From the IMG/VR virus record IMGVR_UViG_2675903313_000009: a stretch of 64,000 nt of DNA, one strand, 5' to 3'. Origin of the DNA: a virus. Its lineage: Duplodnaviria; Heunggongvirae; Uroviricota; Caudoviricetes. The position numbers and the translations under genes were made by a program. The notes below the pieces were generated by a model. It was not told the origin of the DNA. It worked only from the letters and a program-made list of their open reading frames with translations, and ran no database searches. Of the stretch, positions 2,412-46,159 are shown piece by piece (the stretch's first letter is position 1; each line of letters begins with the position of its first letter).

Positions 2412-5400
2412 TTGGACATGGAACAGTTCAAGAAGAAAAAATTACCGCTTCTTATTGCCGGTGCTGGTGGCAAGAAAAGTAAAAGCTCCAGCCGTACCCC
2501 GGTTGAAGCTGATGATACTGTCAATTCTCGTGCTATGGCAGCCATCCTCGACCTTCTTGGCGAGGGGGTTATCGGTGGCCTGGTAAATGGCGCAAAGTCG
2601 ATCTTCATCGACGATTTACCGATCTTGAATGAAGATGGCTCTTCCAACTTCAGCGGTATTACATGGGATTTTCGTGACGGCTCACAAGACCAGACGCCAA
2701 TGGCTGGTTTTGATTTTGTTGAAACGCCTAAGTCCGTAAATATTCAGCTTAAAAAAACACACGACGTTACGGTTTCAATCGATAACGATGAAGCTGATCG
2801 CGTTCGTGTCATCATGAAATTCCCCTCTTTACGTAGCGTTGATAAAAGCTCTGGCGATACAAATGGCACTACGGTGAAGTACAAATTCCAGATCGCCAAC
2901 GCAGACGCAACATTTTCTGATGTAGTGGCAGAAGGTGAGAAAAGCGTTGATATCACGCTAACGGCAAAGAAAACCGGCGTGTATTACCGTAGCCATGAGC
3001 TGAAACTGCCTAAGCCTGGTCGTGCATACAAGGTTAGGGTGATTCGTCTTACAGATGATAATAGTAGCCAGTACCTCTACAACGACACATGGGTTGATTC
3101 CATCGGTGAGATTGTCGACACGCCAATGAACTACCCTAACTCTGCTCTTGTTGGCTTGAAGGTCAATTCAGAGCAGTTTGGTAGCACAATGCCTTCCCGT
3201 TCGTATTTGGTGCGCGGTATCAAAATCCGAGTACCGTCAAACTACAACGAATACACCAATACTTATGTCGGCGTATGGGACGGTACTTTTAAGCTGTTGT
3301 CTTCTTCAAACCCTGCGTGGATTCTCTACGATTTGCTTACCAATACTCGGTATGGTCTTGGGCAATTTGTGTCGGAATCCATGATTGACCTCGGCCAGCT
3401 CTACCAGATTGGTCGATATTGTGACGAAGAGGTCGATGATGGCTTTGGGGGTAAAGAGAAACGCTTTGCAATCAATACGCAGATCACCAGTCGACAAGAC
3501 GCATACCGATTAATTCAGGATATTGCCGGTGCATTCCGCGGCATGGTGTTTTGGGCTGGTGGCATGGTTAACATCATGCAGGATAGCCCATCAGATCCGG
3601 TAATGATGTTTACCAACTCCAACGTCAAAGATGGACTGTTTACCTATAAAGGTTCTGCGCGTAAAGATCGCCCATCCGTTGCGCTCGTAACCTACAACAA
3701 CAAGGAGGACGGTTATAAGCAAAATATCGAGTACGTTGAAGATCAGGACGCAATGCGCCGTTATGGTGAGCGTAAAACAGAAGTCGTAGCATTTGGATGT
3801 ACAAGCCGAGGCCAGGCTCACCGAGTTGGTTTGTGGCTTTTGTATACCGCCAGAATGGAGTCGGATGTAATTACATTTACTGCCGGCTTAGACGCCTCAT
3901 TTCTGATGCCCGGTGAAACCGTTCTGATTCAGAACAAATATCGTGCAGGTAAACGTAACTCCGGTCGAATTGTGGAGTTTACCAAAAACAGCATCACTCT
4001 CGATGCGCCTGTGTCGTTAGCTAAAAGCGGCAGCTTTATTCGGATATTGAATCAGGAAGGCAAAATCGTTGAACGCGATGTTCTTGAAACTGGCGAAAAC
4101 ATAACAAAGGTTACGTTTTCAAAAGCCCTGTCGTCAGCGGAAACGCCTGTTTTGAACGGTGTCTGGACAATTACAGAACCAGATCTCGAACCTATGCGCG
4201 TTCGCATCGTTAACATCGCGCAGGGGGAAACGCCGGGTAGCTTTGACATCACCGCTGTTGAGAACAATCCGTCTAAATATGAGGCAATCGACAATGGTGC
4301 AACGCTGATCCCGCAGAATACGACGGTATTGGACCCAACTTACTCCAAGCCATCTAATCTGCAAATCACTGAAGGGACTTATCTCTCAAGCCCGGGCAAC
4401 CTGTCAGTAAAACTGACTGCAACATGGGAAGGAAAATCTCCAGAGTATTGGATCAGTTGGCGACGTTCTGATGAAAACAATGTATCGAACTGGCAATCGG
4501 CGCGTGTAACCGAAGAGCAATACGAAATCGTTAATGTCGCGGAGAATGGACGCTACGACTTCCAGCTGTATGCGGTTTCATTCAACGGTAAAAAAACAGA
4601 GATTATCAGTACCGTTTATCAGGTGTTGGGCACAATGACACCGCCGGATGCCCCAACGTCATTAACGGCCGTTGGAGACTATCGTAATGTGATACTGAAT
4701 TGGGTTAATCCAGATTCGGTAGACCTTGATCACATTAATGTTTACGCATCCCAGACCAACAATCTGGATACGGCGAAACTGATCGCAGAGTCTGCAAGCA
4801 CCACCTTTACACATGCTGGTCTTGGGGATAGCGAAACGTGGTATTACTGGGTTCGAGCATCGAACAAGCGAGGTATGTTAAGTCCTCCGAACTCAAACTT
4901 GGGTACAGAGGCGGCAACTCGCGATGTACTGTCGTTCCTGACTGGCAAAATTACATCTTCCGAGCTTGGTCAGGCTCTGCTTGAGGACATCAACAGCAAA
5001 GCCTCTCAAGAAGCAGTTGACGAGTTAAATGAGCATATCAACCAGAGCGTCGAATCTTTGGAGGGGGCGGTAAACGACGTTAAGGAAGATATAGCTGAAT
5101 TAGATAAGCAGTTCAGCGATAACCTCGCGAATTTTGAAATAAAATTCAACGAGCGTAGCGATGCTTTGGAGAACGCACAAACCGAGCTTAAAGGTGAGGT
5201 TTCGGCAACGATCGACAAGGTCAATGAAGCGTTTGAAAAAATTGATGCTACTGATGCTGCAATTGTTGAAATCGAAAACACCGTATCTGAACACGATAAA
5301 GCTCTCGCTAATACAGTCGAGGCAATAAAGGCTGCAAGAGATGAAGCGGCGGCTCTTATTGCTAAGGAAAGCGAGGCTCGTGTTGAAGGCGATGCTGCAA

Positions 5401-7142
5401 ACGCTAAACAACTGGAAGTGTTGCAGTCAACGGTAGAGGAAAGCTCCGCTGCCGTTGAAGAAATGAAAAAGACGGTTGCAGAGGTCGATCGTGCCAGTGC
5501 AGAACTGACTACGAACATTGAGGCGTTAGCCAAAACAAATATTGACTTGGCTCTTCGTCAAGATGAAGACCAGCACAAGCAGATGGTCAATAACGCGAAG
5601 ATCGCAACAACACAGAAAACCTTTGCTGATGATATGTCTGCAATGGCCACGAAGGTTGAGGAAATTCGCGTAGAAATTGGCGAAGACATTAAGGCCAGTA
5701 TTCTGGAAGAGTCCACCGCTCGTGCCGATGGCGATGAAGCGTTGGCAAAGCGTGTCACTCAGCTGCAATCTAAGTTTGAAGGAGATATCAGCGCGGCGAT
5801 TAGTACAGAGCAGGAGGCTCGTACATCTGCCGATGAAGCTCTGACGACACAGATCACTCAGCTTGAGTCGAAAGTAAGCAACGATATCGTCGCAGCTATT
5901 AAGGAAGAGCAAGAAGCCCGAGCAACGGAAGATTCGGCTCTGGCAAGCCAGATCACCCAACTTCAGGCAAAGGTTGATGATGATATTTCTGCTGCAATAC
6001 GTAGTGAGCAGGAGGCCCGAGCAAGCGGGGACTCTGCGTTAGCCAAACAAATAAACCAGCTTCAGTCAAAGGTTGACGGTGATATATCCGCTGCCATCAC
6101 TCAGGAGCAGGAGGCCAGAGCAAGTGCTGACCAGGCGCTCTCACGAGAAATTAACAGCCTGCGAGCACAAACCGGAACTGATATTGCCGCAGCGGTTGCT
6201 GTAGAGACAAAAGCAAGGACTGATGCCGATAGTGCATTGTCTACCCAGATTACGTCTCTTACAGCAAAAGCTAATGATCTCAAGGCGTCTCTTGCCAGAG
6301 AAACAACGGCTCGTGCAGATGGTGATACCGCTTTAACAAAAGAGGTTTCAAGTTTAAAAGCACAGACAGCGAAAGATATTAGTGCGGCCGTTGCAGTTGA
6401 AACGCAGGCTCGAACTGATGCTGACTCGGCGTTGTCGTCTCAGATCACCAAGCTGACCTCTCAATACAAAGAGGATATTAAAGCGGCTGTAGCAACCGAA
6501 ACGAAAACGCGTACAGAGCAAGATGCTGCATTGGCAACTCAAATCACAAACTTAGAGTCTCAAACGGCAGCCAACATTTCCGCGGCGGTCACAACTGAAA
6601 CGACAGCGAGAACGCAGGCAGATAATGCTCTGAGTGGGCGAATCGATACTCTGAAAGCAGAGGTGAATGGAAATACCGCGACAATTCAACAGCAGGCAAC
6701 AGCTATTGCTGATACCAACAAAAAAGTGTCAACCGCGTGGACGTTGAAAATGGAGACTTCAACGAGCGGAGGGCAGAAGTATGTTGCCGGTATTGCGCTT
6801 GGTATTGACACCACTGGGCTATCTCAGTTTTTGGTTCAGGCGGACAGGTTTGGTTTGGTCAACTCTGTTAACGGGAAGATCACAACGCCATTTGTTATCG
6901 AAAACAGTATCGCCTATATGAATGGAGCGTATATCAAGGATGGCACAATCACCAATGCAAAAGTAGGCGATCTGCAATCTACCAATTTTGTTAGCGGTAG
7001 ATCTGGATGGCGGTTCGGCAAAAATGGAACGCTTGAGATCAACGGTAATAGCGGCGGCAATGGGCGATTGGTTATAAATGGTCAGCGGATTGACGTTTAT
7101 GACGATAACAACGTCCTACGAGTAAGAATTGGCCGTCTGTGA
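2412..7142 (+). CDS. Host specificity / tail tip protein J (lambda gpJ-like) with a long central coiled-coil repeat insert
   Basis: 1576 aa; N-terminal and later blocks (FRDGSQDQTP, GCTSRGQAHR, KITSSELGQALLED, GQKYVAGIALGID..LSQFLVQADRF) match lambda J from memory; about 570 aa of heptad-rich tandem repeats lie in the middle. Confidence 0.9.
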   Translation: MDMEQFKKKKLPLLIAGAGGKKSKSSSRTPVEADDTVNSRAMAAILDLLGEGVIGGLVNGAKSIFIDDLPILNEDGSSNFSGITWDFRDGSQDQTPMAGFDFVETPKSVNIQLKKTHDVTVSIDNDEADRVRVIMKFPSLRSVDKSSGDTNGTTVKYKFQIANADATFSDVVAEGEKSVDITLTAKKTGVYYRSHELKLPKPGRAYKVRVIRLTDDNSSQYLYNDTWVDSIGEIVDTPMNYPNSALVGLKVNSEQFGSTMPSRSYLVRGIKIRVPSNYNEYTNTYVGVWDGTFKLLSSSNPAWILYDLLTNTRYGLGQFVSESMIDLGQLYQIGRYCDEEVDDGFGGKEKRFAINTQITSRQDAYRLIQDIAGAFRGMVFWAGGMVNIMQDSPSDPVMMFTNSNVKDGLFTYKGSARKDRPSVALVTYNNKEDGYKQNIEYVEDQDAMRRYGERKTEVVAFGCTSRGQAHRVGLWLLYTARMESDVITFTAGLDASFLMPGETVLIQNKYRAGKRNSGRIVEFTKNSITLDAPVSLAKSGSFIRILNQEGKIVERDVLETGENITKVTFSKALSSAETPVLNGVWTITEPDLEPMRVRIVNIAQGETPGSFDITAVENNPSKYEAIDNGATLIPQNTTVLDPTYSKPSNLQITEGTYLSSPGNLSVKLTATWEGKSPEYWISWRRSDENNVSNWQSARVTEEQYEIVNVAENGRYDFQLYAVSFNGKKTEIISTVYQVLGTMTPPDAPTSLTAVGDYRNVILNWVNPDSVDLDHINVYASQTNNLDTAKLIAESASTTFTHAGLGDSETWYYWVRASNKRGMLSPPNSNLGTEAATRDVLSFLTGKITSSELGQALLEDINSKASQEAVDELNEHINQSVESLEGAVNDVKEDIAELDKQFSDNLANFEIKFNERSDALENAQTELKGEVSATIDKVNEAFEKIDATDAAIVEIENTVSEHDKALANTVEAIKAARDEAAALIAKESEARVEGDAANAKQLEVLQSTVEESSAAVEEMKKTVAEVDRASAELTTNIEALAKTNIDLALRQDEDQHKQMVNNAKIATTQKTFADDMSAMATKVEEIRVEIGEDIKASILEESTARADGDEALAKRVTQLQSKFEGDISAAISTEQEARTSADEALTTQITQLESKVSNDIVAAIKEEQEARATEDSALASQITQLQAKVDDDISAAIRSEQEARASGDSALAKQINQLQSKVDGDISAAITQEQEARASADQALSREINSLRAQTGTDIAAAVAVETKARTDADSALSTQITSLTAKANDLKASLARETTARADGDTALTKEVSSLKAQTAKDISAAVAVETQARTDADSALSSQITKLTSQYKEDIKAAVATETKTRTEQDAALATQITNLESQTAANISAAVTTETTARTQADNALSGRIDTLKAEVNGNTATIQQQATAIADTNKKVSTAWTLKMETSTSGGQKYVAGIALGIDTTGLSQFLVQADRFGLVNSVNGKITTPFVIENSIAYMNGAYIKDGTITNAKVGDLQSTNFVSGRSGWRFGKNGTLEINGNSGGNGRLVINGQRIDVYDDNNVLRVRIGRL
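5000..6700 (+). repeat. Tandem coding repeats (units of about 33-36 codons) inside J: Q/E-rich coiled-coil modules (..QITQLQSKV.DDISAAI..EQEARA.AD.AL..)
   Basis: At least 12 consecutive similar units visible in the translation; antisense ORFs listed here by the track are artefacts of the repeat. Confidence 0.75.
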
Positions 7143-7235
7143 TGGTGGAAAAAAAAATTTATATCGGTAAAAATAGGTAAGTATTTACTTAATGGCGGGC
7201 AAGGTTGGCCCGCCAAATCAAGGAGCATATTCAAC

Positions 7236-10200
7236 ATGTGGTACAGGGAAGGTACTATCACATTTACACAGGGTAGCAATACTCTGGTTGGGGCAGGGAC
7301 AGCCTGGAATGTAACAGCTAATGGTGTGTTGCCGGGGATGATCGTCATTGGCCCCGACAATAAGCTGTATGAGATCAAGCGCGTAATAAGCGATACGAAT
7401 ATTGTTCTCTCAGAACCTTATACCGGCGAAACTCAGTCTGAGGTTCCGTGCCGAATCATTACGACCTATGAAGGCGACTTAACACAGTTTAGCGCGCGCT
7501 TTACTGCGCTAATGTCGCGTATGTCGGCTGATTCCAAGTCCATACGCAGTTGGTTGACTGCGCTGGATGAGGTGACAATCGAGCGTGAAGACGGTACAGA
7601 AGTGACCGTTAAGCCGCTAATGCAGATCGTCAACGAGCACAACGAAAACGTTGAGTGGTATAAAAATAACACTGACGCGATTGATGCTGCTGGCGACAAA
7701 GCTCGTGAGGCGGCGGCCAGTGCTGCCGCAGCAGCAAAAAGCGCCAATGTCGCTGGAGAAAAAGCCTCTCAAGCGTCTCAAAGTGCATCCGCTGCGGCAT
7801 CCTCACAAAGTGCCGCAAGTGCGAGTGCAACTGCTGCGAAAAAATCTGAAACGAATGCTGCAGCGTCACAAAAATCTGCAGCCACTTCTGCATCCACCGC
7901 GACCACGAAGGCGTCAGAAGCTGCCACCTCAGCCCGGGATGCGGCGGCCTCAAAAGAGGCAGCGAAATCATCAGAAACGAGCGCTGCCTCGAGCGCCGGC
8001 AGTGCAGCTTCCTCGGCAACGGCGGCAGGAAATTCCGCGAAGGCCGCAAAAACGTCTGAGACGAATGCGGATAACAGCGCACAGGCGGCAGCAGACTCAC
8101 AAACTGCATCGGCAAACTCCGCGACAGCAGCCAAAAAATCAGAAACCAACGCGAAAAATAGTGAGGCAGCAGCAAAGGTCAGCGAAACCAACGCTAAAGC
8201 GTCAGAGAACAAGGCGAAAGAATATCTCGACAAGGTCGGGGGACTCGTCAGCCCGATGACGCAATACGATTGGCCCGTTGTTACTGGTAATGAGTCTTTT
8301 TACATAAAGATCGCGAAACTTTCCGATCCCGGAAGCAACAATTGCCATGTAACGCTAATGGTTACTAACGGCGGTGACTACGGCTCCCCTTACGGAAACA
8401 TTGACTTTATCGAGATCTCGGCGCGCGGTCTGCCTTCTTCGCTTACTGCTGATAATGTATCTCGTTACCTGAGTATACGCCGTTTAGGGCCAACCGGGCT
8501 AATCAATAGCATGCAAATGCGTTACGGCCTGGTTAAAGGTGATGGCTTTATTGAGGTTTGGGCCTTCCAGCGTGCATTTATCAACGGCGCAAAGGTTGCG
8601 GTACTGGCGCAGACGGCACGCACGGAATTATACATTCCAGACGGATTTGTTAAGCAAACCGCCGCGCCTTCTGGATATGTTGAAGGCAACGTTGTAAGGA
8701 TTTACGACCAGGTAAACAAGCCGTCGAAATCGGATGTTGGACTTGGCAACGTAACGAACGATGCGCAGGTAAAAAAAACCGGCGATACAATGACCGGTGG
8801 GCTTACTTTTGCAAACGACTCAATCCTTGCCTGGATTCGGAATACTGACTGGGCGAAGATTGGATTTAAAAATGATGCCGATGGTGACACTGATTCATAC
8901 ATGTGGTTTGAAACAGGCGACAACGGCAATGAATATTTCAAATGGAGAAGCCGCCAGAGCACCACAACAAAAGACCTGATGAATCTTAAATGGGATGCTT
9001 TGTCTGTTCTTGTTAAAGCCCTTTTCAGCAGTGAAGTAAAAATATCGACAGTCAATGCACTGAGGATTTTTAATTCATCCTTTGGTGCTATTTTTCGCCG
9101 TTCTGAAGAAAGCCTGTATATCATCCCTACACGAGAAAATGAGGGTGAAAATGGAGATATTGGGCCATTAAGGCCATTCAACATCAACTTAAGAACAGGA
9201 GTTGTGTCTGTTGGTCATGGACTAAATGTTACTGGTGGCGTTAATGGTAGTTTGAACGGTAATGCTTCAACAGCTACGAAGTTGCAGACTGCGCGTACTA
9301 TTAATGGGGTGTCGTTTGACGGTTCTAAAAACATTGAGCTAACTCCAAGGTCTATAGGAACGATCAACTCAGCAACAATGTCTTTTAGTGGTGGTGCCGG
9401 ATGGTTCAAGCTGGCAACTGTAACCATGCCACAGGCCAGTTCCGTGGTTTACATAAGCCTGATTGGTGGTGCAGGGTATAACGTTGGCGCCCCGCAGCAA
9501 GCAGGCATCTCTGAGCTGGTTCTGCGTGCCGGAAATGGAAATCCAAAGGGTATTACTGGTGCATTATGGCGACGGACATCGGTTGGATTTACTAATTTTG
9601 CATGGGTGAATACATCCGGTGATACCTATGATGTTTATGTTGAAATAGGTAATTACGCCACAGGTGTTAATATTCAGTGGGATTATACCAGTAACGCCAG
9701 CGTAACGATTCATACATCACCAACTTATACAGCGAATAAACCAACTGGTCTTACTGATGGAACGGTATATGTCATTTACAGTTCGCACATTAAACCGACC
9801 GCCACGGATGTCGGCGCATTACCAATAACCGGAGGAAATCTCAACGGCGGTTTAACGGCTACTGGTGAGATCATTTCAAAATCGGCGAATGGTCTGCGCA
9901 TTGCCTATGGCAACTATGGATTCTTTATCCGTAATGACGGCGGCAGCACATATTTCATGCTAACAGCATCAGGAGATACATTAGGTTCATGGAACGGTTT
10001 GCGACCTATTACAATTAATAATACCAGCGGTGCTGTATCAATTGGTAATGGACTAAATGTGACTGGTGGCGTAAATGGTAGTTTGAACGGTAATGCTTCA
10101 ACAGCTACGAAGTTGCAAACAGCGAGAAACATCAATGGTGTTAAGTTTGATGGTTCAGGCGATATCAATATTAATACATTGGTATCTCGTGGCCGAGTTA

Positions 10201-14050: not shown

Positions 14051-14470
14051 ATGCTAAATTATCATGACAATACGCGTTCTATGCAGACGATCCGCACCAA
14101 TACTGCGGTCATCGACAGCTTTCCTATGCGTATTCACAACAGTGAAGACGCAGTAGAAGTGCGACGTATGTTGTGCCGTGAATCAGCTAACCGCCAGCAC
14201 TTCATCGTCACTTTTAAGAGCGATGTGGCGCGTGCCGAAAAGATCTCTAATTCTACGTCACTGGTTAAACCGTTGGCCGAGGTTGTCGCTAACGGTAAAC
14301 GAACCTCTTTTGTTTTAGATGTTGCTGAACAATATCCTGACTTGAAGTGTTTAGATCGTGATATTTCTTCACGAATCAAACAAGTTGTAGAGTCTTTTAT
14401 GAAGAAATTCTGTAAAATCGATGATATGGAACCATCAACGGCACAGAATACTTCATGGCACCATCTCTAA
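14051..14470 (+). CDS. Hypothetical protein (139 aa)
   Basis: Track ORF; no motif recognised. Confidence 0.45.
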   Translation: MLNYHDNTRSMQTIRTNTAVIDSFPMRIHNSEDAVEVRRMLCRESANRQHFIVTFKSDVARAEKISNSTSLVKPLAEVVANGKRTSFVLDVAEQYPDLKCLDRDISSRIKQVVESFMKKFCKIDDMEPSTAQNTSWHHL

Positions 14471-15228
14471 TTGGTCAGGCGAACAGATTAATCCCTGAAA
14501 TAGAAGACTACAGCAAGGTCTTGTCTGAAATGCCGAGAGCGACGAGAATTATCGCTCTCGGTGAGTTCTATTTTATCTCCCGAGGTTTCGATCTAATTCG
14601 ATTTACCGAATACGAGCTTGTTGATTCGGCCTATGAACGCTGTATTGTTGGCGAGTGTCTTGAGTCATGTGATCCTGATTACCAAGAGCAGGAAGTTAAG
14701 CGACTCAAACGTGCTGGTTACACACCTCTTGAGATAGGAGCAGAAATTGAATCCTACAAGTTGCATGTGGGGCAGCCAGTCCAAACAGTCTTCCGCGTGG
14801 CCTACTGCGAGTTTCCAATCAAGGATAAATCTGGAGTAAAAGTCAGCGCCAAGCAGATTAGAGGGGTTTTTACTCATGCTGATTATATGGGATTAGGCAT
14901 CGCAAGTTTTGCTTACCTTTATCTCGTAGATAAGTATCAGTACTTGGTTTGCGATACGTTACAGACGGTAAAAGGCGCAACTCTTTGGGCTGTGAGTATG
15001 CGCAAACATGGACTGGTCGAAATTTACGATACGAAGAACGAAAATTTTATAGAGGAATTGGGTGAGGATGCCTGTGGCGTAAGTGGTTTTATTCCGTGGG
15101 ATATCGGTAAGTCTGACGGAGGCCAGATGCGAAGACGTGAAGAGTGGGGGACTAATAAAATCAATCTCACCCCAGGTGCTTGTACTCATATAGTGAACAT
15201 TCTGACTAAACGATCTATGAATCAATAA
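14455..15228 (+). CDS. Hypothetical protein (257 aa)
   Basis: Track ORF overlapping the previous gene; followed by a strong terminator. Confidence 0.5.
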   Translation: MAPSLIGQANRLIPEIEDYSKVLSEMPRATRIIALGEFYFISRGFDLIRFTEYELVDSAYERCIVGECLESCDPDYQEQEVKRLKRAGYTPLEIGAEIESYKLHVGQPVQTVFRVAYCEFPIKDKSGVKVSAKQIRGVFTHADYMGLGIASFAYLYLVDKYQYLVCDTLQTVKGATLWAVSMRKHGLVEIYDTKNENFIEELGEDACGVSGFIPWDIGKSDGGQMRRREEWGTNKINLTPGACTHIVNILTKRSMNQ

Positions 15229-15377: not shown

Positions 15378-16046
15378 ATGACCAAGATCTTTGTGGTTGG
15401 CGGCACAAAGGGCGGGCCTGGCAAATCCACCGTTGCCCAGCAAATTGCCGTTTGCCTGAAAGTCAAAAAGAAGAAGAAGGTTTATATTACCGATATAGAT
15501 ATTCAGCGCACGACAACGAGCTGGTGTGAAGACCGTCGACAGAACGAAGACCTTGAGCTGATTCCTTTTGCATACGTTCAGGATGACATCATTAAGCACC
15601 TAAAATCGCTTCAGGGTAGAGCTGAGTTTGTAGTGGTAGATGCTGGTGGCTTCGACTCCGAAATTCAGCGACAAGCGATGCTGATGGCTGACGTTATCAT
15701 TATCCCGCTGCGTCCTAAGCGTCGTGATTTGAAATCTTTACGTGACATCGATCCTATTATCGACAATGTTCGCAATGTAAACGATAAAGTGAAGGTCCGC
15801 GCGGTCATGAACCAGTGCCCGGCTTTGCCATCACAAGTGTCTCGCATTCTGGCGGCTAAAGAGATTGTTGAGACGTTTGGCATCGAGTCTGCGCCAGTCA
15901 ATCTATATAACCGCAACGTCTATGATGATGCGGAAGAGTCTGGTCGTTCTATCTTTGAAATGACCGGTAGCGAGCGCGACAAAAAGGCGGAAGCCGAGTT
16001 TGAAGAATTTGTAGATTATCTGTTGAGTCTGGAGGAAGAAGAATAA
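15378..16046 (+). CDS. parA: ParA-like partition ATPase
   Basis: Deviant Walker A GGTKGGPGKST at the N-terminus; 222 aa, size of small type Ib ParA. Confidence 0.85.
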   Translation: MTKIFVVGGTKGGPGKSTVAQQIAVCLKVKKKKKVYITDIDIQRTTTSWCEDRRQNEDLELIPFAYVQDDIIKHLKSLQGRAEFVVVDAGGFDSEIQRQAMLMADVIIIPLRPKRRDLKSLRDIDPIIDNVRNVNDKVKVRAVMNQCPALPSQVSRILAAKEIVETFGIESAPVNLYNRNVYDDAEESGRSIFEMTGSERDKKAEAEFEEFVDYLLSLEEEE

Positions 16047-16405
16047 TGTCCATGAAAATGGGTGACCTAGCAAAGCGCAAAGAGCCTGATGCACCGGCTA
16101 AGAACACAACTCCTTTGCGCCAACCAGTCAGACCACAGGGACGCCCGACTCGTGGCAAAGAGAAAATTAAAAGCCGCACAATGTCACTGGAGGACGAATA
16201 CTTCGAACTGCTGGAGATGATGAAGTTCATCCCTCGCTTCGAGAAGTTCACTCGTTCTGACGTGATTCGTGCTGCTATTTTCCATCTTGCGGAGAAGACA
16301 CCGCAGGAAATCGAGGACATCGTGAAACTTAACGAGGCGATCACAGCTGCCGATGTCACGATGCGTACCGATGAAATCAAACGCGAGTTGATGAAGAAAG
16401 GTTAA
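16046..16405 (+). CDS. Small partition partner (ParG/ParB-like)
   Basis: 119 aa, basic N-terminus, overlaps the parA stop; fold assignment not verified. Confidence 0.5.
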   Translation: MSMKMGDLAKRKEPDAPAKNTTPLRQPVRPQGRPTRGKEKIKSRTMSLEDEYFELLEMMKFIPRFEKFTRSDVIRAAIFHLAEKTPQEIEDIVKLNEAITAADVTMRTDEIKRELMKKG

Positions 16406-16412
16406 TTTTATT

Positions 16413-16437
16413 GAGGTGCTGCTTGGCACCTCTTTCT
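16413..16437 (+). terminator. Rho-independent terminator after the partition operon
   Basis: GAGGTGC-TGCTTG-GCACCTC hairpin followed by TTTCT. Confidence 0.55.
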
Positions 16438-16449
16438 ATAGGTTCCCTA

Positions 16450-17169
16450 ATGCTCTACAAATATATTGGAAGTGAAGATTCGCAAAAAGTGTTACGTAAC
16501 CTCAAACGGTTTGTAGAGGACGGCACTATCTCTGCTAGCGCACCTTCTTCATTCAACGACCCATCAGAGTTCAAAGTTTCGATAACGATGGGAGGTACAG
16601 AAGTGGAGCACCGGAAACACTTTGAAGACAATGGATGTAAGGATTTTTCCTTTGAAGACTGGGATGCTGTAGCTCCTGAAGCTGCAAAATCGTTGGCTGT
16701 GGATTTGCGGAAAGAATCATTAGGGGCTTTTGGTGTGGTGTGCTTGTCACCAAACGAAGATAACATCTTGATGTGGTCACATTACTCAGTGTCGCATAAA
16801 GGTTTCTGCATAGGCTTTGATGATGATTTTGTTACCTCTATTGAGGGGTATCACAGCTTTGATAATGTGAAATATATACCTTCTGTTCCCGTGTTCGATG
16901 AAGTTACAGATGAGTTTAAGGTACTTTTTGATAAGCTCTTTTTCTACAAGCACGAATGCTGGAAATATGAGGAAGAACAAAGGGTTATTACTAAAAAAAT
17001 AGGCGCTCAGGCATTTGATAAGAAATATATTAGAGAGATCATTCTTGGACATAACGTTTCTCCTGAAGTAGAAGAATATGCCCGGACACAGCTAGACACG
17101 AGCATCGAGGTTTACAAAATGAGTACACCTGATGATGGTTATCTTCTTGTCAAAGAAAAGCTGAAGTAG
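16450..17169 (+). CDS. Hypothetical protein (DUF2971-like by motif memory)
   Basis: ATG at 16450 inside track ORF 16411-17169; begins MLYKY...; motifs FNDPSEF, MWSHYSVSHKGFCIGFD and ECWKYEEEQR resemble the DUF2971 pattern as I remember it (unverified). Confidence 0.5.
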   Translation: MLYKYIGSEDSQKVLRNLKRFVEDGTISASAPSSFNDPSEFKVSITMGGTEVEHRKHFEDNGCKDFSFEDWDAVAPEAAKSLAVDLRKESLGAFGVVCLSPNEDNILMWSHYSVSHKGFCIGFDDDFVTSIEGYHSFDNVKYIPSVPVFDEVTDEFKVLFDKLFFYKHECWKYEEEQRVITKKIGAQAFDKKYIREIILGHNVSPEVEEYARTQLDTSIEVYKMSTPDDGYLLVKEKLK

Positions 17170-17235
17170 CTCCAGACTTTCCTCAAATGATTATGTTGGG
17201 CGCTTTTCTTATTGAACTGGTTAGTGAGGCTAATA

Positions 17236-18408
17236 ATGGATTTGTTCTCAACCAAAATAGCAAAAAACAAGCTGCACGAATCTTTTAAACAGATTTATCA
17301 AGATAATACATATGCTCCAGTAAGAGAAGTGATACAGTCGTGGGGGCGTGGGTTACTGGAGCGTAGCGGTGAGCAGACTAAATTCGTTAAAGAGTTTCAG
17401 ACAACCTTCAATTCCGCCTTATGGGAATTGTATCTGAACGAAATGTTTATTCGTCTCGATTATTCTGTCGACTACACAAAAGACAGTCCCGATTTCTGTG
17501 TTACTACACCGTCAGGCTACCAGTTTAACGTCGAAGCTGTGATATCAGATCGGCCACATAATCCACCTGCAGGTGTTCTTTTTAGCGAATCAAAATTCAA
17601 ACATCAATCAACGCTAAAATTAATCGGAAAAATCAAAGACAAACATGATCTTTTTACAGGAGTTAATGGCAAAAAATTCCCGTACTCTACGATGTCTCAT
17701 GTAGTTAATAAGCCGTTTGTTCTGGCGCTTGCACCCTTTGACTCCGATTTATCATTGTCTCAAAATAACACAATCATCAATCGAGTGTTGTTTGGCATTG
17801 AGGAACCTACCACCAGAAATTTGGTGACTGGCAGCCAAACTAAAGTTACCTCAATCAAAAAGAATGAAGACGTTGAAATTCCATTAGGTATATTTACTAA
17901 CGACTCATATAAAGAAATAAGTGCGGTTATTTTCTCCACCACCGGCACTTTTGGAAAAGCCGTGGTTCAAAGCGGTATCGGTAGATATGTAAGGTCAACA
18001 CGATATCGAGCCATTGATGTGAATGATTTCATCGCCAATGAAGGGATGAAAAACGAGGGAAAGCACACACAAAGGATAGGACCTGATCATTTCATCACTA
18101 CATATCGGCATTTTTTAAATAACGAAGTCACTGGTGCGGATATTGTAGTTTGTCATTCCACTGCTCATGAAGAGACGCACTTTGACGGCCTTCATATTTA
18201 CTACAATCCTTTTGCGACAGTGCCACTGGACAGAAATATTTTCTTCCCCCCAGAGATAACTCATAATTTTTACGATATGGAAAAAGAACAGTCTGTTCAG
18301 AATCATCCTGATGGAGCGCTGGTATCTAGACAGGTTTTTGAACCAACTAGAGCACATTTTAGGTATATCATGAAACATTGGTTTCCAGGCTTTCTAAAAG
18401 ATGTTTAA
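17236..18408 (+). CDS. Hypothetical protein (about 390 aa), no recognisable domain
   Basis: Internal ATG of track ORF 17212-18408, preceded by a GAGG-like RBS; more AT-rich than the flanking modules; 66 nt downstream of the DUF2971-like gene, same strand. Confidence 0.5.
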   Translation: MDLFSTKIAKNKLHESFKQIYQDNTYAPVREVIQSWGRGLLERSGEQTKFVKEFQTTFNSALWELYLNEMFIRLDYSVDYTKDSPDFCVTTPSGYQFNVEAVISDRPHNPPAGVLFSESKFKHQSTLKLIGKIKDKHDLFTGVNGKKFPYSTMSHVVNKPFVLALAPFDSDLSLSQNNTIINRVLFGIEEPTTRNLVTGSQTKVTSIKKNEDVEIPLGIFTNDSYKEISAVIFSTTGTFGKAVVQSGIGRYVRSTRYRAIDVNDFIANEGMKNEGKHTQRIGPDHFITTYRHFLNNEVTGADIVVCHSTAHEETHFDGLHIYYNPFATVPLDRNIFFPPEITHNFYDMEKEQSVQNHPDGALVSRQVFEPTRAHFRYIMKHWFPGFLKDV

Positions 18409-18432
18409 GCATCCTGCTGGTTGAATTTGGAA

Positions 18433-18495
18433 CCTGCTTCTGTATATAAATACTAAGTTACTTATTATTATTTATACGGAAGCAGGTCTTTTTCT
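18433..18495 (+). terminator. Long AT-rich palindrome / terminator closing the cassette
   Basis: CCTGCTTCTGTATATAAATA ... TATTTATACGGAAGCAGG inverted repeat followed by TCTTTTTCT; loop contains TAAGTTACTTAT. Confidence 0.55.
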
Positions 18496-18596
18496 ATGCC
18501 AACTTCCCAGACACATTCCCTTCCGTTTCCACTTCCAAAAACTGCCACCAGTCGCTATCATCCGCTCATTGCAATAAGTAAGTAACTACCTATCTG

Positions 18597-20811: not shown

Positions 20812-21993
20812 ATGAACCTTTATATTATATCAACATTTAGGTTGGTCACAATATTGCCTATTAAAAGTGGAATTATCGTGAGCGAGCTGAAAGAGCTAAT
20901 TACCGAATTAGATTTTGAACAATGGTTGGACACTGAAGGTATCGTTTATCGACGTGGAGGCGTGAGTGCTCGCGGTCGTGAAGTGAATATCAAGGAGTGT
21001 CCGGTATGTGGCAGCTCCAACTGGAAGGTATATTTCAATCTGACCAGTGGCGTCGGCAAATGCTTTGCTGGTGATCATCCCGAAGAGATTCAGTTCAATA
21101 AGCTGATCTTCCTCAAGCACTACAGCGGTAAATCACGACGACAGTTCGAGGAATATGTGCAGAACGCGCTGATCTCACAAGGATGGGCGCCGAAGAAGGA
21201 AGAGGTCGTGCTGGCCAGCAAGGTTGAACTCGAAGGGCCAGTAGCTCTCCCTCGACATTACGAACTCCCCATTGACGGTCGTCTTCCTGATTATCTGGTG
21301 GAGCGCCATATCTCCCCGGATCTGGCCAAATACTTTGATCTGCGTTACTGCGTCGAAGGCAAGCACGCATACGTCGATCCGTACACAGACCAGGTCAAAG
21401 GGCAGGTGTTTGATATGCGCATCCTGATACCGGTTTACGATCTGGATGGCGTGATGAAGACCTTCCAGGGGCGTGACATTACCGGTGCAGCAGAACGTCG
21501 CTACCTCTTTCCTATGCAGCTTCCAGCTTCAGGTAGGTTTCTCTACAACGGCCATAATGCAGTCGGCAAACAGACTGTAGTTGTCTGTGAGGGGGCGTTC
21601 GATGTTATGGGGGTCAAACGAGCTATTTTTGACGAAGAAACATTACGTGATTACGTGGAACCAATAGGAACGTTCGGGATGCATCTATCTGGTAACACCA
21701 CTCAGGATGCAGAAGATCAGCTGGGCGCGTTCCTGACGCTCAAGGCGCGTGGGCTACGTAATGTGATTATGATGTGGGATAGTGAAAAGCAGGCTATACG
21801 CAACACTATGGCCGCAGCCAGGCGACTGAGCAGTATTGGTCTTAATGTGAAAATTGCATGTTTGGGCGAGGAAGGACTCGACCCCGGCGATGCGACCCCG
21901 GGGCAGATTATCAAAGCCTACTATTGCGCAAAACCTTACTCACGACAGCTTGAACTTTTAAGCAAGGTAAAAGGCATAGCTGCATTAGTTTGA
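20812..21993 (+). CDS. DNA primase (zinc-binding plus TOPRIM)
   Basis: ATG at 20812 follows the conserved AAAAGAAAAACACATG leader; CPVCGSS..GKCF zinc motif and VVCEGAFDVMG TOPRIM-like block. Track ORF 20740 starts inside a hairpin after the helicase gene. Confidence 0.65.
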   Translation: MNLYIISTFRLVTILPIKSGIIVSELKELITELDFEQWLDTEGIVYRRGGVSARGREVNIKECPVCGSSNWKVYFNLTSGVGKCFAGDHPEEIQFNKLIFLKHYSGKSRRQFEEYVQNALISQGWAPKKEEVVLASKVELEGPVALPRHYELPIDGRLPDYLVERHISPDLAKYFDLRYCVEGKHAYVDPYTDQVKGQVFDMRILIPVYDLDGVMKTFQGRDITGAAERRYLFPMQLPASGRFLYNGHNAVGKQTVVVCEGAFDVMGVKRAIFDEETLRDYVEPIGTFGMHLSGNTTQDAEDQLGAFLTLKARGLRNVIMMWDSEKQAIRNTMAAARRLSSIGLNVKIACLGEEGLDPGDATPGQIIKAYYCAKPYSRQLELLSKVKGIAALV

Positions 21994-23130
21994 ACCAGTA
22001 TTAGTCACATACACATTGACCGAAAATGATTTAACTTCAGTATTGAAGTTGTCAGTCATTACCGCGAGGTAGGCATTTTTGGTATCTCTGAATTGCTTCA
22101 GGATGATTTGAACGTTATCTGTGCAAACAAACGAGGTAGCCAGATTGCCTCCTTTCTCTGAAAAATCCTTCAGGAATGTGCAGTCAACTTTGCCATCATT
22201 AGCGGTGAAGGTAGCATCATCACCCTGCCAGGTAAATGTAGCGTTAACGCCCTTATCAATGGATTTAGCAATAAGTCGCTGGGTGGCGGATTTTGTTTTG
22301 GCTTTGGAAGCCGGCGCTCGATATTTGCCGCTTTCTTTCAGTTCTGCAATGTAATCGCAGCCTCTTTTTTCTCCTTTATCGCAAGCAGTCTGATAAAGGT
22401 CGGCTGCTTTTTTATAGTCCTTTTTTACACCTTCCCCATTCTCATACATAATGCCAAGATTGGTTATGGCGTCGGCGTTTCCAAGTTCCGCTGCCTTTTT
22501 ATACCACTTAACTGCTTCTGCATCATTGCGTTTAACGCCTAACCCATCATCGTATAGTATTCCTAATCCTATCATAGCTTCTGAACTGCCTTGGTCTGCC
22601 GCCTTTTTGTAATAAGTAAAAGCCTTTTTATAATTCTTTTTAACGCCTTTACCATATTGGTAATACGCCCCAAGAACTGAAGTTGCTTTAACATACCCGG
22701 CATCAGAGGCTAGTTTGAAGTATTTAATGGCGAGTGCATGATCTACTTTACCAAGCAACCCCTTTTGATAAATAGCACCAAGATTGTTGTAGGCTCTACC
22801 TTCACGAGCATCCCCCGCAAGTTTGTAGTACTCAACAGCTTTATTTAGGTCTTTATCTACACCCTCGCCAAATGTGTACATAACCCCAAGTGCATAATAT
22901 GCTACTTTGTCTCCCTTTTCTGCAGCGAGATCAATCCACTTCTTGGCCTCAACTACATCCTTATCAAAACCATTGATACCATCAAAATAATTTGTCCCTA
23001 ACTCACTTTGTGCTGCGGTATCCCCTGCGGTAGCGGCTTCTATCAGCGTTTGTTTATTGTCTGCGTTAACGAATCCAGAGCTAAAAAGCAAAGTTAATGC
23101 CAGCAACGATGAAGATTTTATGTATTTCAT
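21985..23130 (-). CDS. Secreted Sel1-repeat (TPR-like) protein
   Basis: Start at internal Met (MKYIKSSSLLALTLLFSSGFVNA signal peptide) of track ORF 21985-23175; at least seven Sel1-like units (A..YY.LG..Y..G.GV.KD...A..WYKKAA). Confidence 0.75.
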   Translation of the reverse strand: MKYIKSSSLLALTLLFSSGFVNADNKQTLIEAATAGDTAAQSELGTNYFDGINGFDKDVVEAKKWIDLAAEKGDKVAYYALGVMYTFGEGVDKDLNKAVEYYKLAGDAREGRAYNNLGAIYQKGLLGKVDHALAIKYFKLASDAGYVKATSVLGAYYQYGKGVKKNYKKAFTYYKKAADQGSSEAMIGLGILYDDGLGVKRNDAEAVKWYKKAAELGNADAITNLGIMYENGEGVKKDYKKAADLYQTACDKGEKRGCDYIAELKESGKYRAPASKAKTKSATQRLIAKSIDKGVNATFTWQGDDATFTANDGKVDCTFLKDFSEKGGNLATSFVCTDNVQIILKQFRDTKNAYLAVMTDNFNTEVKSFSVNVYVTNTGSN

Positions 23131-23363
23131 ATTTTTTGTTCTGTTGATATAGGATGAACAGTTTAGACGCGGCAAGCGTCAAGTGTGCGAAAAAGGGTAC
23201 TTAAATTTAGTTAATATGTCAGCTTTGTTGATTTAGTTTATGGTCGGTAAAGTTACTAGGAAACTAATAACCATAAGAAATAGTACGCCATTTAATTATT
23301 GTGGCACTGCTCGTGTTTTGATTAACTAATACCTGCGATAAATATAAATAAAGGGAAGCCAAC

Positions 23364-27347: not shown

Positions 27348-27737
27348 AAACATATTGATAAGTATTTACTTACTTATCTTTTGTGTATAAGATGACTTTG
27401 TTTTCGTTGAGACGCGACTGTTTGAACTTAAATACAAGTGCAAACGAAGAAGTCTATCTGGCAGTAGCCTAATAAGCCAAACACCAGCGAGGTCAGTTTC
27501 CAGCCTCGTTACCGAAATGGGACACACTGAGCGAGTGTGATTGCAGAACGCAGGAGGGAACATTCATGTTCCCTCCGATGAAGTAACAGAATGGGCGGTT
27601 GGTATATTTTCAACTCCATATGACTCCCGGATTCTTAGCCACTGACCGCCCATCCTGTTACGTCATTTTGTTCAATTATGTCGTTTATACTGGGTTAAAA
27701 AGCGGCGACGTAGCCCGGCTGGTATGGTTAGCCAGCA

Positions 27738-45944: not shown

Positions 45945-46159
45945 GTTTACAGTAAAGTTTATATAAGTTAGTATCTACCTATCATGAAGATTTTTATTGA
46001 ATACTTGTTACTCATCGTTTCAATAGCTTTTGTCATCGACTGCATTTTCACTGGTGTCATTCGTAAAGTCTTTTCCCCGGTGCACGACGTAGTCATAAAC
46101 GCTTTGGCTATCGTGCTCGTATTTAATTCAGCATTTGATGTAATCAAAGAGGTGGCAGC

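Follow-up and report, generated by a model that had tools for sequence, protein, structure and literature searches.

How should a two-gene cassette lodged between the partition and replication modules of a phage-plasmid be understood: as an undescribed two-component system, or as cargo of kinds that are already known? The cassette in question occupies positions 16411-18495 of a 64,000-nucleotide (nt) stretch of viral DNA (IMG/VR record IMGVR_UViG_2675903313_000009; the whole stretch is hereafter referred to as the window), and an original prediction, made from the sequence alone, had proposed the former. The analysis reported here favours, with a probability of roughly 70%, the reading that the cassette, which sits in a defence hotspot of SSU5-type phage-plasmids, is exchangeable cargo made up of two stacked anti-phage genes of known kind, each able to act alone. 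This is regarded as the best reading since each of the two genes has a single-gene precedent. The cassette would then be a new member of described defence families and not an undescribed system; for the slot that it occupies, no paper describing it as a hotspot was found in the literature searched. The cassette comprises the following features:

16450-17169, + strand: gene 1, 239 amino acids, beginning MLYKY; DUF2971/PDC-S31 protein with a predicted ADP-ribosyltransferase (ART) fold; candidate catalytic residues H111, Y112, E174 and E176
17170-17235, + strand: spacer of 66 nt, with a GAGG Shine-Dalgarno sequence 8 nt 5' of the gene-2 ATG
17236-18408, + strand: gene 2, 390 amino acids; PD-T7-5 homologue with a predicted PD-(D/E)xK core at about residues 60-250 and a beta-rich C-terminal domain

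The predicted layout of two co-directional genes 66 nt apart is exact. The MLYKY start of gene 1 also stands, but position 16411 is only the TTG of a mechanically called open reading frame and falls within a hairpin upstream of the gene, while the ATG at 16450 is the start used in RefSeq and in all homologues.

The product of gene 2, in which the original prediction recognised no motif, matches the PADLOC model of PD-T7-5 (PDLC04110) along its whole length (E = 1.8e-139, 462.6 bits; residues 1-371 aligned with model positions 1-342 of 346). It is identical to the validated PD-T7-5 protein, also of 390 amino acids, at 293 of 384 positions (76%). PD-T7-5 was described by Vassallo et al. (2022, Nat Microbiol) as a single coding sequence from E. 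coli UMB0934 with confirmed defence against T7; fragments were cloned there with about 120-140 bp on each side in a promoterless low-copy vector, and in the PD-T7-5 clone the upstream part measures 119 bp. The validated gene was located by means of the primers published for its cloning, which match exactly on the chromosome of E. coli 118UI (locus L006, 7903-7936 and 9321-9338), in an island beside ssrA. Since this island contains no intact ART-like gene, a close relative of gene 2 is sufficient alone. An origin of the validated gene from a phage-plasmid was considered and rejected, as the primers match the chromosomal ssrA island and not the window. The two loci thus differ in setting (an ssrA-adjacent chromosomal island versus a phage-plasmid slot) and in allele, and single-gene protection against T7 has been shown only for the 76%-identical chromosomal allele. 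They also differ upstream: an intact DUF2971 gene precedes gene 2, whereas only a decayed remnant is found at the validated locus, and the upstream DNA diverges from 21 nt before the ATG, so that the promoter of gene 2 is not the validated one.

The structural model of gene 2, a confident one, has PD-(D/E)xK-like proteins as its best fold matches, which places its nuclease region in this group. Residues E64, D79, D86, E100 and K136 are invariant in 48 homologues, and the stretch with the invariant acidic residues is the same one (residues 49-107) for which Vassallo et al. reported weak PD-(D/E)xK-type HHpred matches for PD-T7-5. By homology, gene 2 would protect against T7-like phages, and it would do so by cutting nucleic acid via a PD-(D/E)xK centre made up of D86, E100 and possibly K136, which may supply the nuclease lysine, with the C-terminal beta domain as a possible sensor or regulator. 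The N-terminal 240 residues additionally match the model of PD-T7-1, another system of Vassallo et al. (2022), at model positions 108-347 of 452 (E = 4.4e-42); the two have the nuclease module in common but not the C-terminal domain, and this partial match is far poorer than that to PD-T7-5. Pfam gave no match for gene 2, NCBIfam none for either protein of the cassette, and no sequence-level match to solved structures was found for either family.

In gene 1, the blocks FNDPSEF, MWSHYSVSHKGFCIGFD and ECWKYEEEQR are present, and the suggestion that they are DUF2971-like was borne out by a match to Pfam DUF2971 (PF11185) of 30.2 bits, above the gathering cut-off of 22. The protein also matches the PADLOC PDC-S31 model (PDLC04990) over its full length (E = 4.5e-38, residues 2-234), as well as phrog_1762 of PHROG. 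An AlphaFold model built on 60 homologues reached a pLDDT of 96.1 and has DarT-like proteins as its best fold matches, by which gene 1 is predicted to adopt a DarT/Tpt1-like ADP-ribosyltransferase fold. Invariant positions are D37, P38, W109, H111, Y112, H116, G118, Y142, K167, W171, Y173, E174 and R178, and E176 is nearly invariant. DUF2971 has been published as an ART-like family of the H-Y-E clade, with a strictly conserved tyrosine and an ExE motif, related to DarT and AbiGi; gene 1 has the conserved tyrosine (motif II) and the ExE (motif III) in a modelled ART fold.

The single-gene precedent for gene 1 is Aristaios (Grafakou et al. 2024), an abortive-infection system of 316 amino acids from a lactococcal plasmid, which has a DUF2971 domain and an ART fold and blocks phage transcription. 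Gene 1 resembles Aristaios in its Pfam DUF2971 domain, its predicted ADP-ribosyltransferase fold and its occurrence as a single gene on a mobile element. It differs in that Aristaios is of Gram-positive origin and longer (316 versus 239 amino acids), the likeness being one of domain and predicted fold only, and an anti-phage phenotype of DUF2971 has been shown for lactococcal Aristaios only. The likeness to DarT of the DarTG system is one of fold alone, with no sequence similarity found; gene 1 has large helical inserts that are not in DarT, and it has no DarG macrodomain partner. Membership of DarTG was rejected, as the neighbouring gene 2 has a nuclease fold and no macrodomain. By analogy with Aristaios and DarT, gene 1 would remain inactive until infection is sensed and would then use NAD+ to ADP-ribosylate nucleic acid or an essential protein, leading to abortive infection. 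Together, the two genes would protect the lysogen, and hence the phage-plasmid, from competing phages. With PADLOC matches to PDC-S31 and PD-T7-5, the defence-type character assigned to both genes by the original prediction holds. Its claim of an undescribed system does not, since gene 1 belongs to PDC-S31 and to the DUF2971 family that includes Aristaios, and since PD-T7-5 has already been reported on SSU5-group elements: a DefenseFinder screen found it on such phage-plasmids of E. coli and Shigella, and both PD-T7-5 and PD-T4-3 have been reported on SSU5 clade J elements.

The element itself is, judged from its sequence, an SSU5-type phage-plasmid. The window is 100% identical to a 111.9-kb E. 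coli plasmid that carries tail, capsid, portal and terminase genes, and the flanks of the cassette are 81-95% identical to Salmonella phage SSU5, Escherichia phage Cyrano and Klebsiella phage-plasmids. The surroundings of the cassette are as follows:

15378-16046, + strand: parA, 222 amino acids, named AAA family ATPase in RefSeq
16046-16405, + strand: parB-like small gene, 119 amino acids
16413-16437, + strand: left hairpin, GC-rich, with its stem at 16413-16432 followed by TTTCT
18433-18495, + strand: right palindromic hairpin, long and AT-rich, with its stem reaching 18486/7 followed by TCTTTTT
from 18597 (RefSeq start 18606), + strand: right-flank protein of 246/249 amino acids
19390-20730, + strand: DnaB-like helicase of the right flank

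Related elements were surveyed through 80 IMG/VR loci retrieved by means of ParA, 79 of which were usable, with the slot delimited by the parB-like gene and the conserved 249-amino-acid gene. Across the 80 related loci, parA and the parB-like gene are 90-100% conserved, and the 249-amino-acid protein is 86-99% conserved in related loci. Between these markers, at least 14 architectures were observed among the 79 loci, including the following:

empty, 192-208 bp: 5 of 79 loci
antisense GIY-YIG protein matching PD-T4-3: 25 of 79 loci
352-amino-acid protein with no library match: 15 of 79 loci
DUF2971 alleles alone: 9 of 79 loci
KAP NTPase matching PDC-S49: 7 of 79 loci
membrane-protein pairs alone: 4 of 79 loci
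the DUF2971 and PD-T7-5 pair of the window: 4 of 79 loci
membrane-protein pairs with DUF2971, as in SSU5 itself: 3 of 79 loci
PD-T7-5 alone: 3 of 79 loci
DUF2971 with the 352-amino-acid gene: 2 of 79 loci

In PLSDB, the flanks are common to 712 plasmid records and the whole cassette is present in 11. With conserved flanks, mutually exclusive, variable and defence-enriched content, and empty sites, the slot between the parB-like stop codon and the backbone palindrome upstream of the replication genes qualifies as a defence hotspot. Two expectations of the original prediction are thereby confirmed, namely that accessory cargo sits here where two modules of a phage-plasmid meet and that comparison with related phage-plasmids would show a variable slot. 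Hotspots known from temperate elements such as P2 (Vassallo 2022, Rousset 2022) are alike in their fixed position, mutually exclusive defence genes, many unknowns and short AT-rich cassettes; the present slot, arranged as parB, cargo, palindrome and replication genes, differs in sitting in SSU5-type phage-plasmids.

Several cargo types of the slot have no Pfam or PADLOC match. These are the 352-amino-acid antisense gene (L012-L018, L042), the two-gene membrane-protein pairs of the SSU5_035/036 type with two divergent variants (L002 1903-2947, L051, L049 6478-7645, L060 3370-4540), and a lipoprotein-like protein of 225 amino acids (L080 5828-6505).

The distribution of DUF2971 in the slot also bears on a different view of gene 1, according to which it works for the phage-plasmid itself, as an ADP-ribosyltransferase used in host takeover or anti-defence like phage-encoded ARTs, and gene 2 alone is defence cargo. 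DUF2971 homologues occupy the slot of some 300 SSU5-like plasmids from many genera, the family occurs in tailed phages, and the gene directly follows the partition operon without a promoter of its own. The gene is nevertheless missing from most relatives, where it is replaced by bona fide defence genes or by nothing, and its alleles diverge to 27-54% identity between flanks of 81-99%, which is typical of defence cargo. As gene 1 moreover matches a PADLOC defence-island candidate model, and Aristaios, the DUF2971 system with experimental validation, acts in defence, a role of gene 1 in host takeover is considered very unlikely.

Even less probable is that the pair stabilises the plasmid state as an addiction module of the toxin-antitoxin type, with gene 1 as a DarT-like toxin and gene 2 as its antidote. 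The DarT-like fold of gene 1, the position of the cassette next to parAB and the presence in relatives of KacT/GNAT-type toxin-antitoxin pairs just 5' of parA would be in keeping with such a module. Gene 2, however, has a nuclease fold, which is neither a macrodomain nor a known antitoxin fold, and PD-T7-5 acts as a defence gene alone. The solitary DUF2971 and PD-T7-5 genes in 9 and 3 of the 79 loci, respectively, further indicate that neither is the obligate antidote of the other, and empty slots are viable.

Whether the two stacked genes act independently was assessed from the neighbourhoods of their relatives. Upstream of 107 PD-T7-5 homologues with 26-60% identity (one genome per species plus viral contigs), the genes are heterogeneous, and DUF2971 or AbiGi was found within the flanks of none (0/107), so that a conserved partner across the whole PD-T7-5 family was rejected. 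A DUF2971 allele of the same subclade as gene 1 (52-54% identity) is paired with a different gene, the most widespread enterobacterial AbiGi stands alone, and no fusion (Rosetta-stone) proteins were found among 374 retrieved proteins.

Several observations weigh against two independently acting, stacked defence genes. Among close PD-T7-5 relatives in Enterobacterales (at least 73% identity; 12 contexts), 9 of the 12 contexts have an intact ART-like gene upstream of PD-T7-5, which is more linkage than simple stacking predicts, and remnants of DUF2971 were detected at two of the three loci where PD-T7-5 stands alone. As regards the individual genes, PDC-S31 is a computational candidate only, and no paper mentioning it was found; the canonical lysine of (D/E)xK is not in gene 2, where the sequence reads E100-A-V; and no promoter was detected for the cassette, its expression model being inferred.

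The nine linked contexts fall into two types. DUF2971 lies upstream of PD-T7-5 in three, namely the window, L087 (73%/80% for the pair) and L090 (54%/76%), and an AbiGi-family gene lies 65-89 nt upstream in six (a Proteus lambdoid prophage, Yersinia prophages, a Serratia P2-like prophage, L176, L178 and L184). PD-T7-5 is alone in the E. coli ssrA island, in Cronobacter-type SSU5-like elements and in Salmonella SSU5-like elements. In the Cronobacter slot, the start of DUF2971 has been kept (ATGCTCGACAA). At the validated E. coli locus (L006), a colinear remnant of the C-terminal 52 residues of DUF2971, with three in-frame stops, lies directly 5' of PD-T7-5 (35% identity, tblastn E = 0.002 against 17 kb). 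At 7422-8035 of the same locus, this remnant comes after a fragment with 74.5% identity to the region that lies 5' of parA in SSU5-type elements; from the two together, the chromosomal PD-T7-5 seems to be derived from a phage-plasmid slot that once held DUF2971 and PD-T7-5.

The two upstream families appear to be distantly related. An hhalign comparison of DUF2971 with a 43-sequence AbiGi alignment gave a probability of 67% (E = 5e-5, 134 colinear columns), compared with only 9% when a shallow AbiGi alignment was used, and both families share the motif K...[WF]xYExExR. The AbiGi and PD-T7-5 genes diverge together, with 83% and 87% identity. In layout, the cassette recalls AbiG of Lactococcus (AbiGi plus AbiGii), in which a protein of about 240 amino acids is likewise followed co-directionally by one of about 390; in addition, AbiGi-family genes precede close PD-T7-5 relatives in prophages, and DUF2971 aligns distantly with AbiGi. 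In contrast, AbiGii is reported to have no recognisable fold and gene 2 has a nuclease core. Assignment of gene 1 to AbiGi (PF10899) was rejected, as neither Pfam nor PADLOC gave a match at E up to 1, and an AbiGi hidden Markov model built in this study found none of the DUF2971 proteins. Gene 2 as AbiGii, and with it the cassette as AbiG, was rejected likewise (no AbiGii/AbiEii match at E up to 1 in Pfam or PADLOC), which leaves an analogy of layout only. No paper on a coupling of AbiGi with PD-T7-5 was found.

Two further neighbours of more distant PD-T7-5 homologues were noted. For a 67%-identical homologue (L181 2013-2954, L182 663-1604), the gene that lies 46 nt upstream encodes a Lit-like protease (Peptidase_U49; PADLOC Lit, E = 5.5e-14), another abortive-infection gene in the position of the ART-like gene. 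A protein of 239 amino acids upstream of a 64% homologue in L183 was taken by eye for an R-STS-ExE ART, for which Pfam, PADLOC, a PDB sequence search and hhalign gave no support.

These neighbourhoods could be explained by one cooperative system in which an exchangeable ART-fold partner (DUF2971 or AbiGi) senses, marks or regulates and the PD-T7-5 nuclease executes, with PD-T7-5 alone keeping part of the activity, e.g., against T7. Close PD-T7-5 relatives have a co-directional DUF2971 gene 41-89 nt upstream in three allele pairs and an AbiGi gene upstream in at least six contexts; AbiGi and PD-T7-5 co-diverge as a unit; the distant homology of DUF2971 and AbiGi would mean that the neighbour position was kept while its occupant was displaced by a distant homologue; and the DUF2971 remnants at lone PD-T7-5 loci, as well as the absence of a called terminator between gene 1 and gene 2, point in the same direction. 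Set against this, the validated PD-T7-5 works without an intact partner, none of the 107 distant homologues has such a neighbour, no fusion proteins were found, and both DUF2971 and AbiGi are also seen by themselves or beside other genes. As pairs move as units, there are few independent pairing events, about two, and DUF2971 is in any case frequent in the SSU5 slot (18 of 79 loci, 309 of 712 records). Because of this joint movement, the frequency of DUF2971 in the slot and the Lit-like gene at the 67%-identical homologue, functional coupling is considered doubtful, though clearly less so than the two alternatives discussed above. The notion of a two-component system in the original prediction therefore fares unevenly: an ART-like gene does precede PD-T7-5 in most close relatives, but each family has a single-gene precedent.

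On the reading of two stacked defence genes, expression of the cassette would depend on its neighbours. No terminator was called on the + strand in the 66-nt spacer, which folds no better than shuffled sequences (z = -0.13), and the two genes are probably co-transcribed. Weak promoter-like sites (9/12 matches) lie within gene 1 at 17015-17042 and 17093-17120, and no promoter-like site was found in the 17-nt gap between the left hairpin and the gene-1 ATG. Because the left hairpin ends only 17 nt before this ATG and no promoter-like site was found there, the cassette is not regarded as an independently promoted, insulated unit. Transcription would instead enter from parAB, with read-through of the small hairpin dampened, so as to give low-level expression of both genes, and would end at the backbone palindrome. 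A search of Rfam for RNA elements in and around the cassette gave sub-threshold noise only. In composition, the original prediction was right that gene 2 is AT-rich but not that this sets it apart, as both genes are (GC content of 0.404 for gene 1 and 0.394 for gene 2, versus 0.47-0.49 in neighbouring genes); 3.5% of equal-sized windows in the 64 kb are equally AT-rich.

The description of the cassette as terminator-insulated holds insofar as both hairpins are real, but the right one is a repeat of the backbone and the left one abuts the start codon of gene 1. The left hairpin received a terminator-like call (fold of -14.6 kcal/mol, z = -2.5) and is probably a terminator or attenuator of parAB. 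Its sequence is specific to the cargo type: other cargo types have different hairpins at the same place, and empty slots have none. Each cargo type was seen to have its own small GC-rich hairpin straight after the parB stop (16406-16449 in the window, with equivalents in L003, L004, L005, L014 and L179), and in empty slots the palindrome is used in its place. For DUF2971-type cargo, the hairpin ends 17-20 nt upstream of the ATG, which suggests attenuated read-through expression.

The right hairpin is highly stable (-27.6 kcal/mol, z = -4.45; 0 of 200 shuffles equally stable), and its pattern occurs once in the window, versus 0 expected. Homology with the relatives SSU5, Cyrano, pGMI17-003_2 and Cronobacter pCS1 ends at 16406-16473 and resumes at 18421-18432, and for this reason the long palindrome is assigned to the backbone and not to the cassette; its inclusion in the cassette was rejected, as it is a dispersed repeat and is also present in empty slots, about 35 nt past the parB stop. 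The palindrome has the pattern CCTGCTTC[CT]GTATA...TATAC[AG]GAAGCAGG and at least three dispersed copies on the same phage-plasmid, including two outside the window (15860-15919 and 44897-44962 of L218, NZ_CP107145.1). In E. coli genomes, 1170 of the 1172 places where it was found are plasmid-borne, with a median of five places per genome. The same palindrome also lies 3' of PD-T7-5 in unrelated lambdoid and P2-like prophages (L093 at about 7195-7260, L216 at about 5500-5570 and L176 at about 4195-4260). Cassette and palindrome seem to move together, and the palindrome may be a terminator, a protein-binding site or a recombination site.

Other observations concern the wider element. Directly upstream of parA, the relatives Cyrano (L003 1-596) and Cronobacter pCS1 (L005 1-474) carry a KacT/GNAT toxin with a DUF1778 antitoxin; the window has two hypothetical genes at this position (14051-15228), which may thus be a second variable spot beyond the partition genes. 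Another accessory insertion may be the AT-rich (41% GC) convergent gene at 21985-23175 (- strand), which lies right after a primase-like gene and encodes a secreted-looking Sel1/TPR-repeat protein of 396 amino acids. A 21-nt motif, ATAAGTAAGTAACTACCTATC, is found at 18574-18594, just 5' of the 249-amino-acid gene, and recurs at 27357-27377 (- strand) and 45963-45983 (+ strand) with 90% identity (E = 0.009 within the window); the recurrence may reflect a common promoter or operator element or be due to chance. In a part of the phage-plasmid outside the window, host-like metG (methionine-tRNA ligase) and apbC genes lie beside an S24 peptidase/repressor region (L218 29992-33283; NZ_CP107145.1 80991-84282).

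As both genes belong to described defence families, the discovery value of the cassette is small, and the slot cargo families without library matches are better candidates for undescribed defence genes. It is conceivable, if improbable on present evidence, that PD-T7-5 of Enterobacterales is one half of a mobile two-gene module, with an exchangeable upstream ART-fold partner, a conserved 3' palindrome and functional cooperation between the two genes; such a module may hop among SSU5-type phage-plasmids, P2-like, lambdoid and Mu-like prophages and chromosomal islands. If this were true, cleavage might be licensed, extended or backed up by the ART partner, for instance through ADP-ribosylation of phage nucleic acid or of a host factor, and PD-T7-5 as published, a single gene, would be what decay has left of the module, with part of its activity. 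The recurrent pairing of ART-like genes with PD-T7-5, together with the DUF2971 remnant next to the validated gene, raises the testable question of whether ADP-ribosyltransferases and nucleases cooperate in defence. Lastly, SSU5-type elements are often found in clinical E. coli, Shigella, Salmonella and Klebsiella, and the cargo of their slot therefore bears on phage susceptibility and phage therapy.

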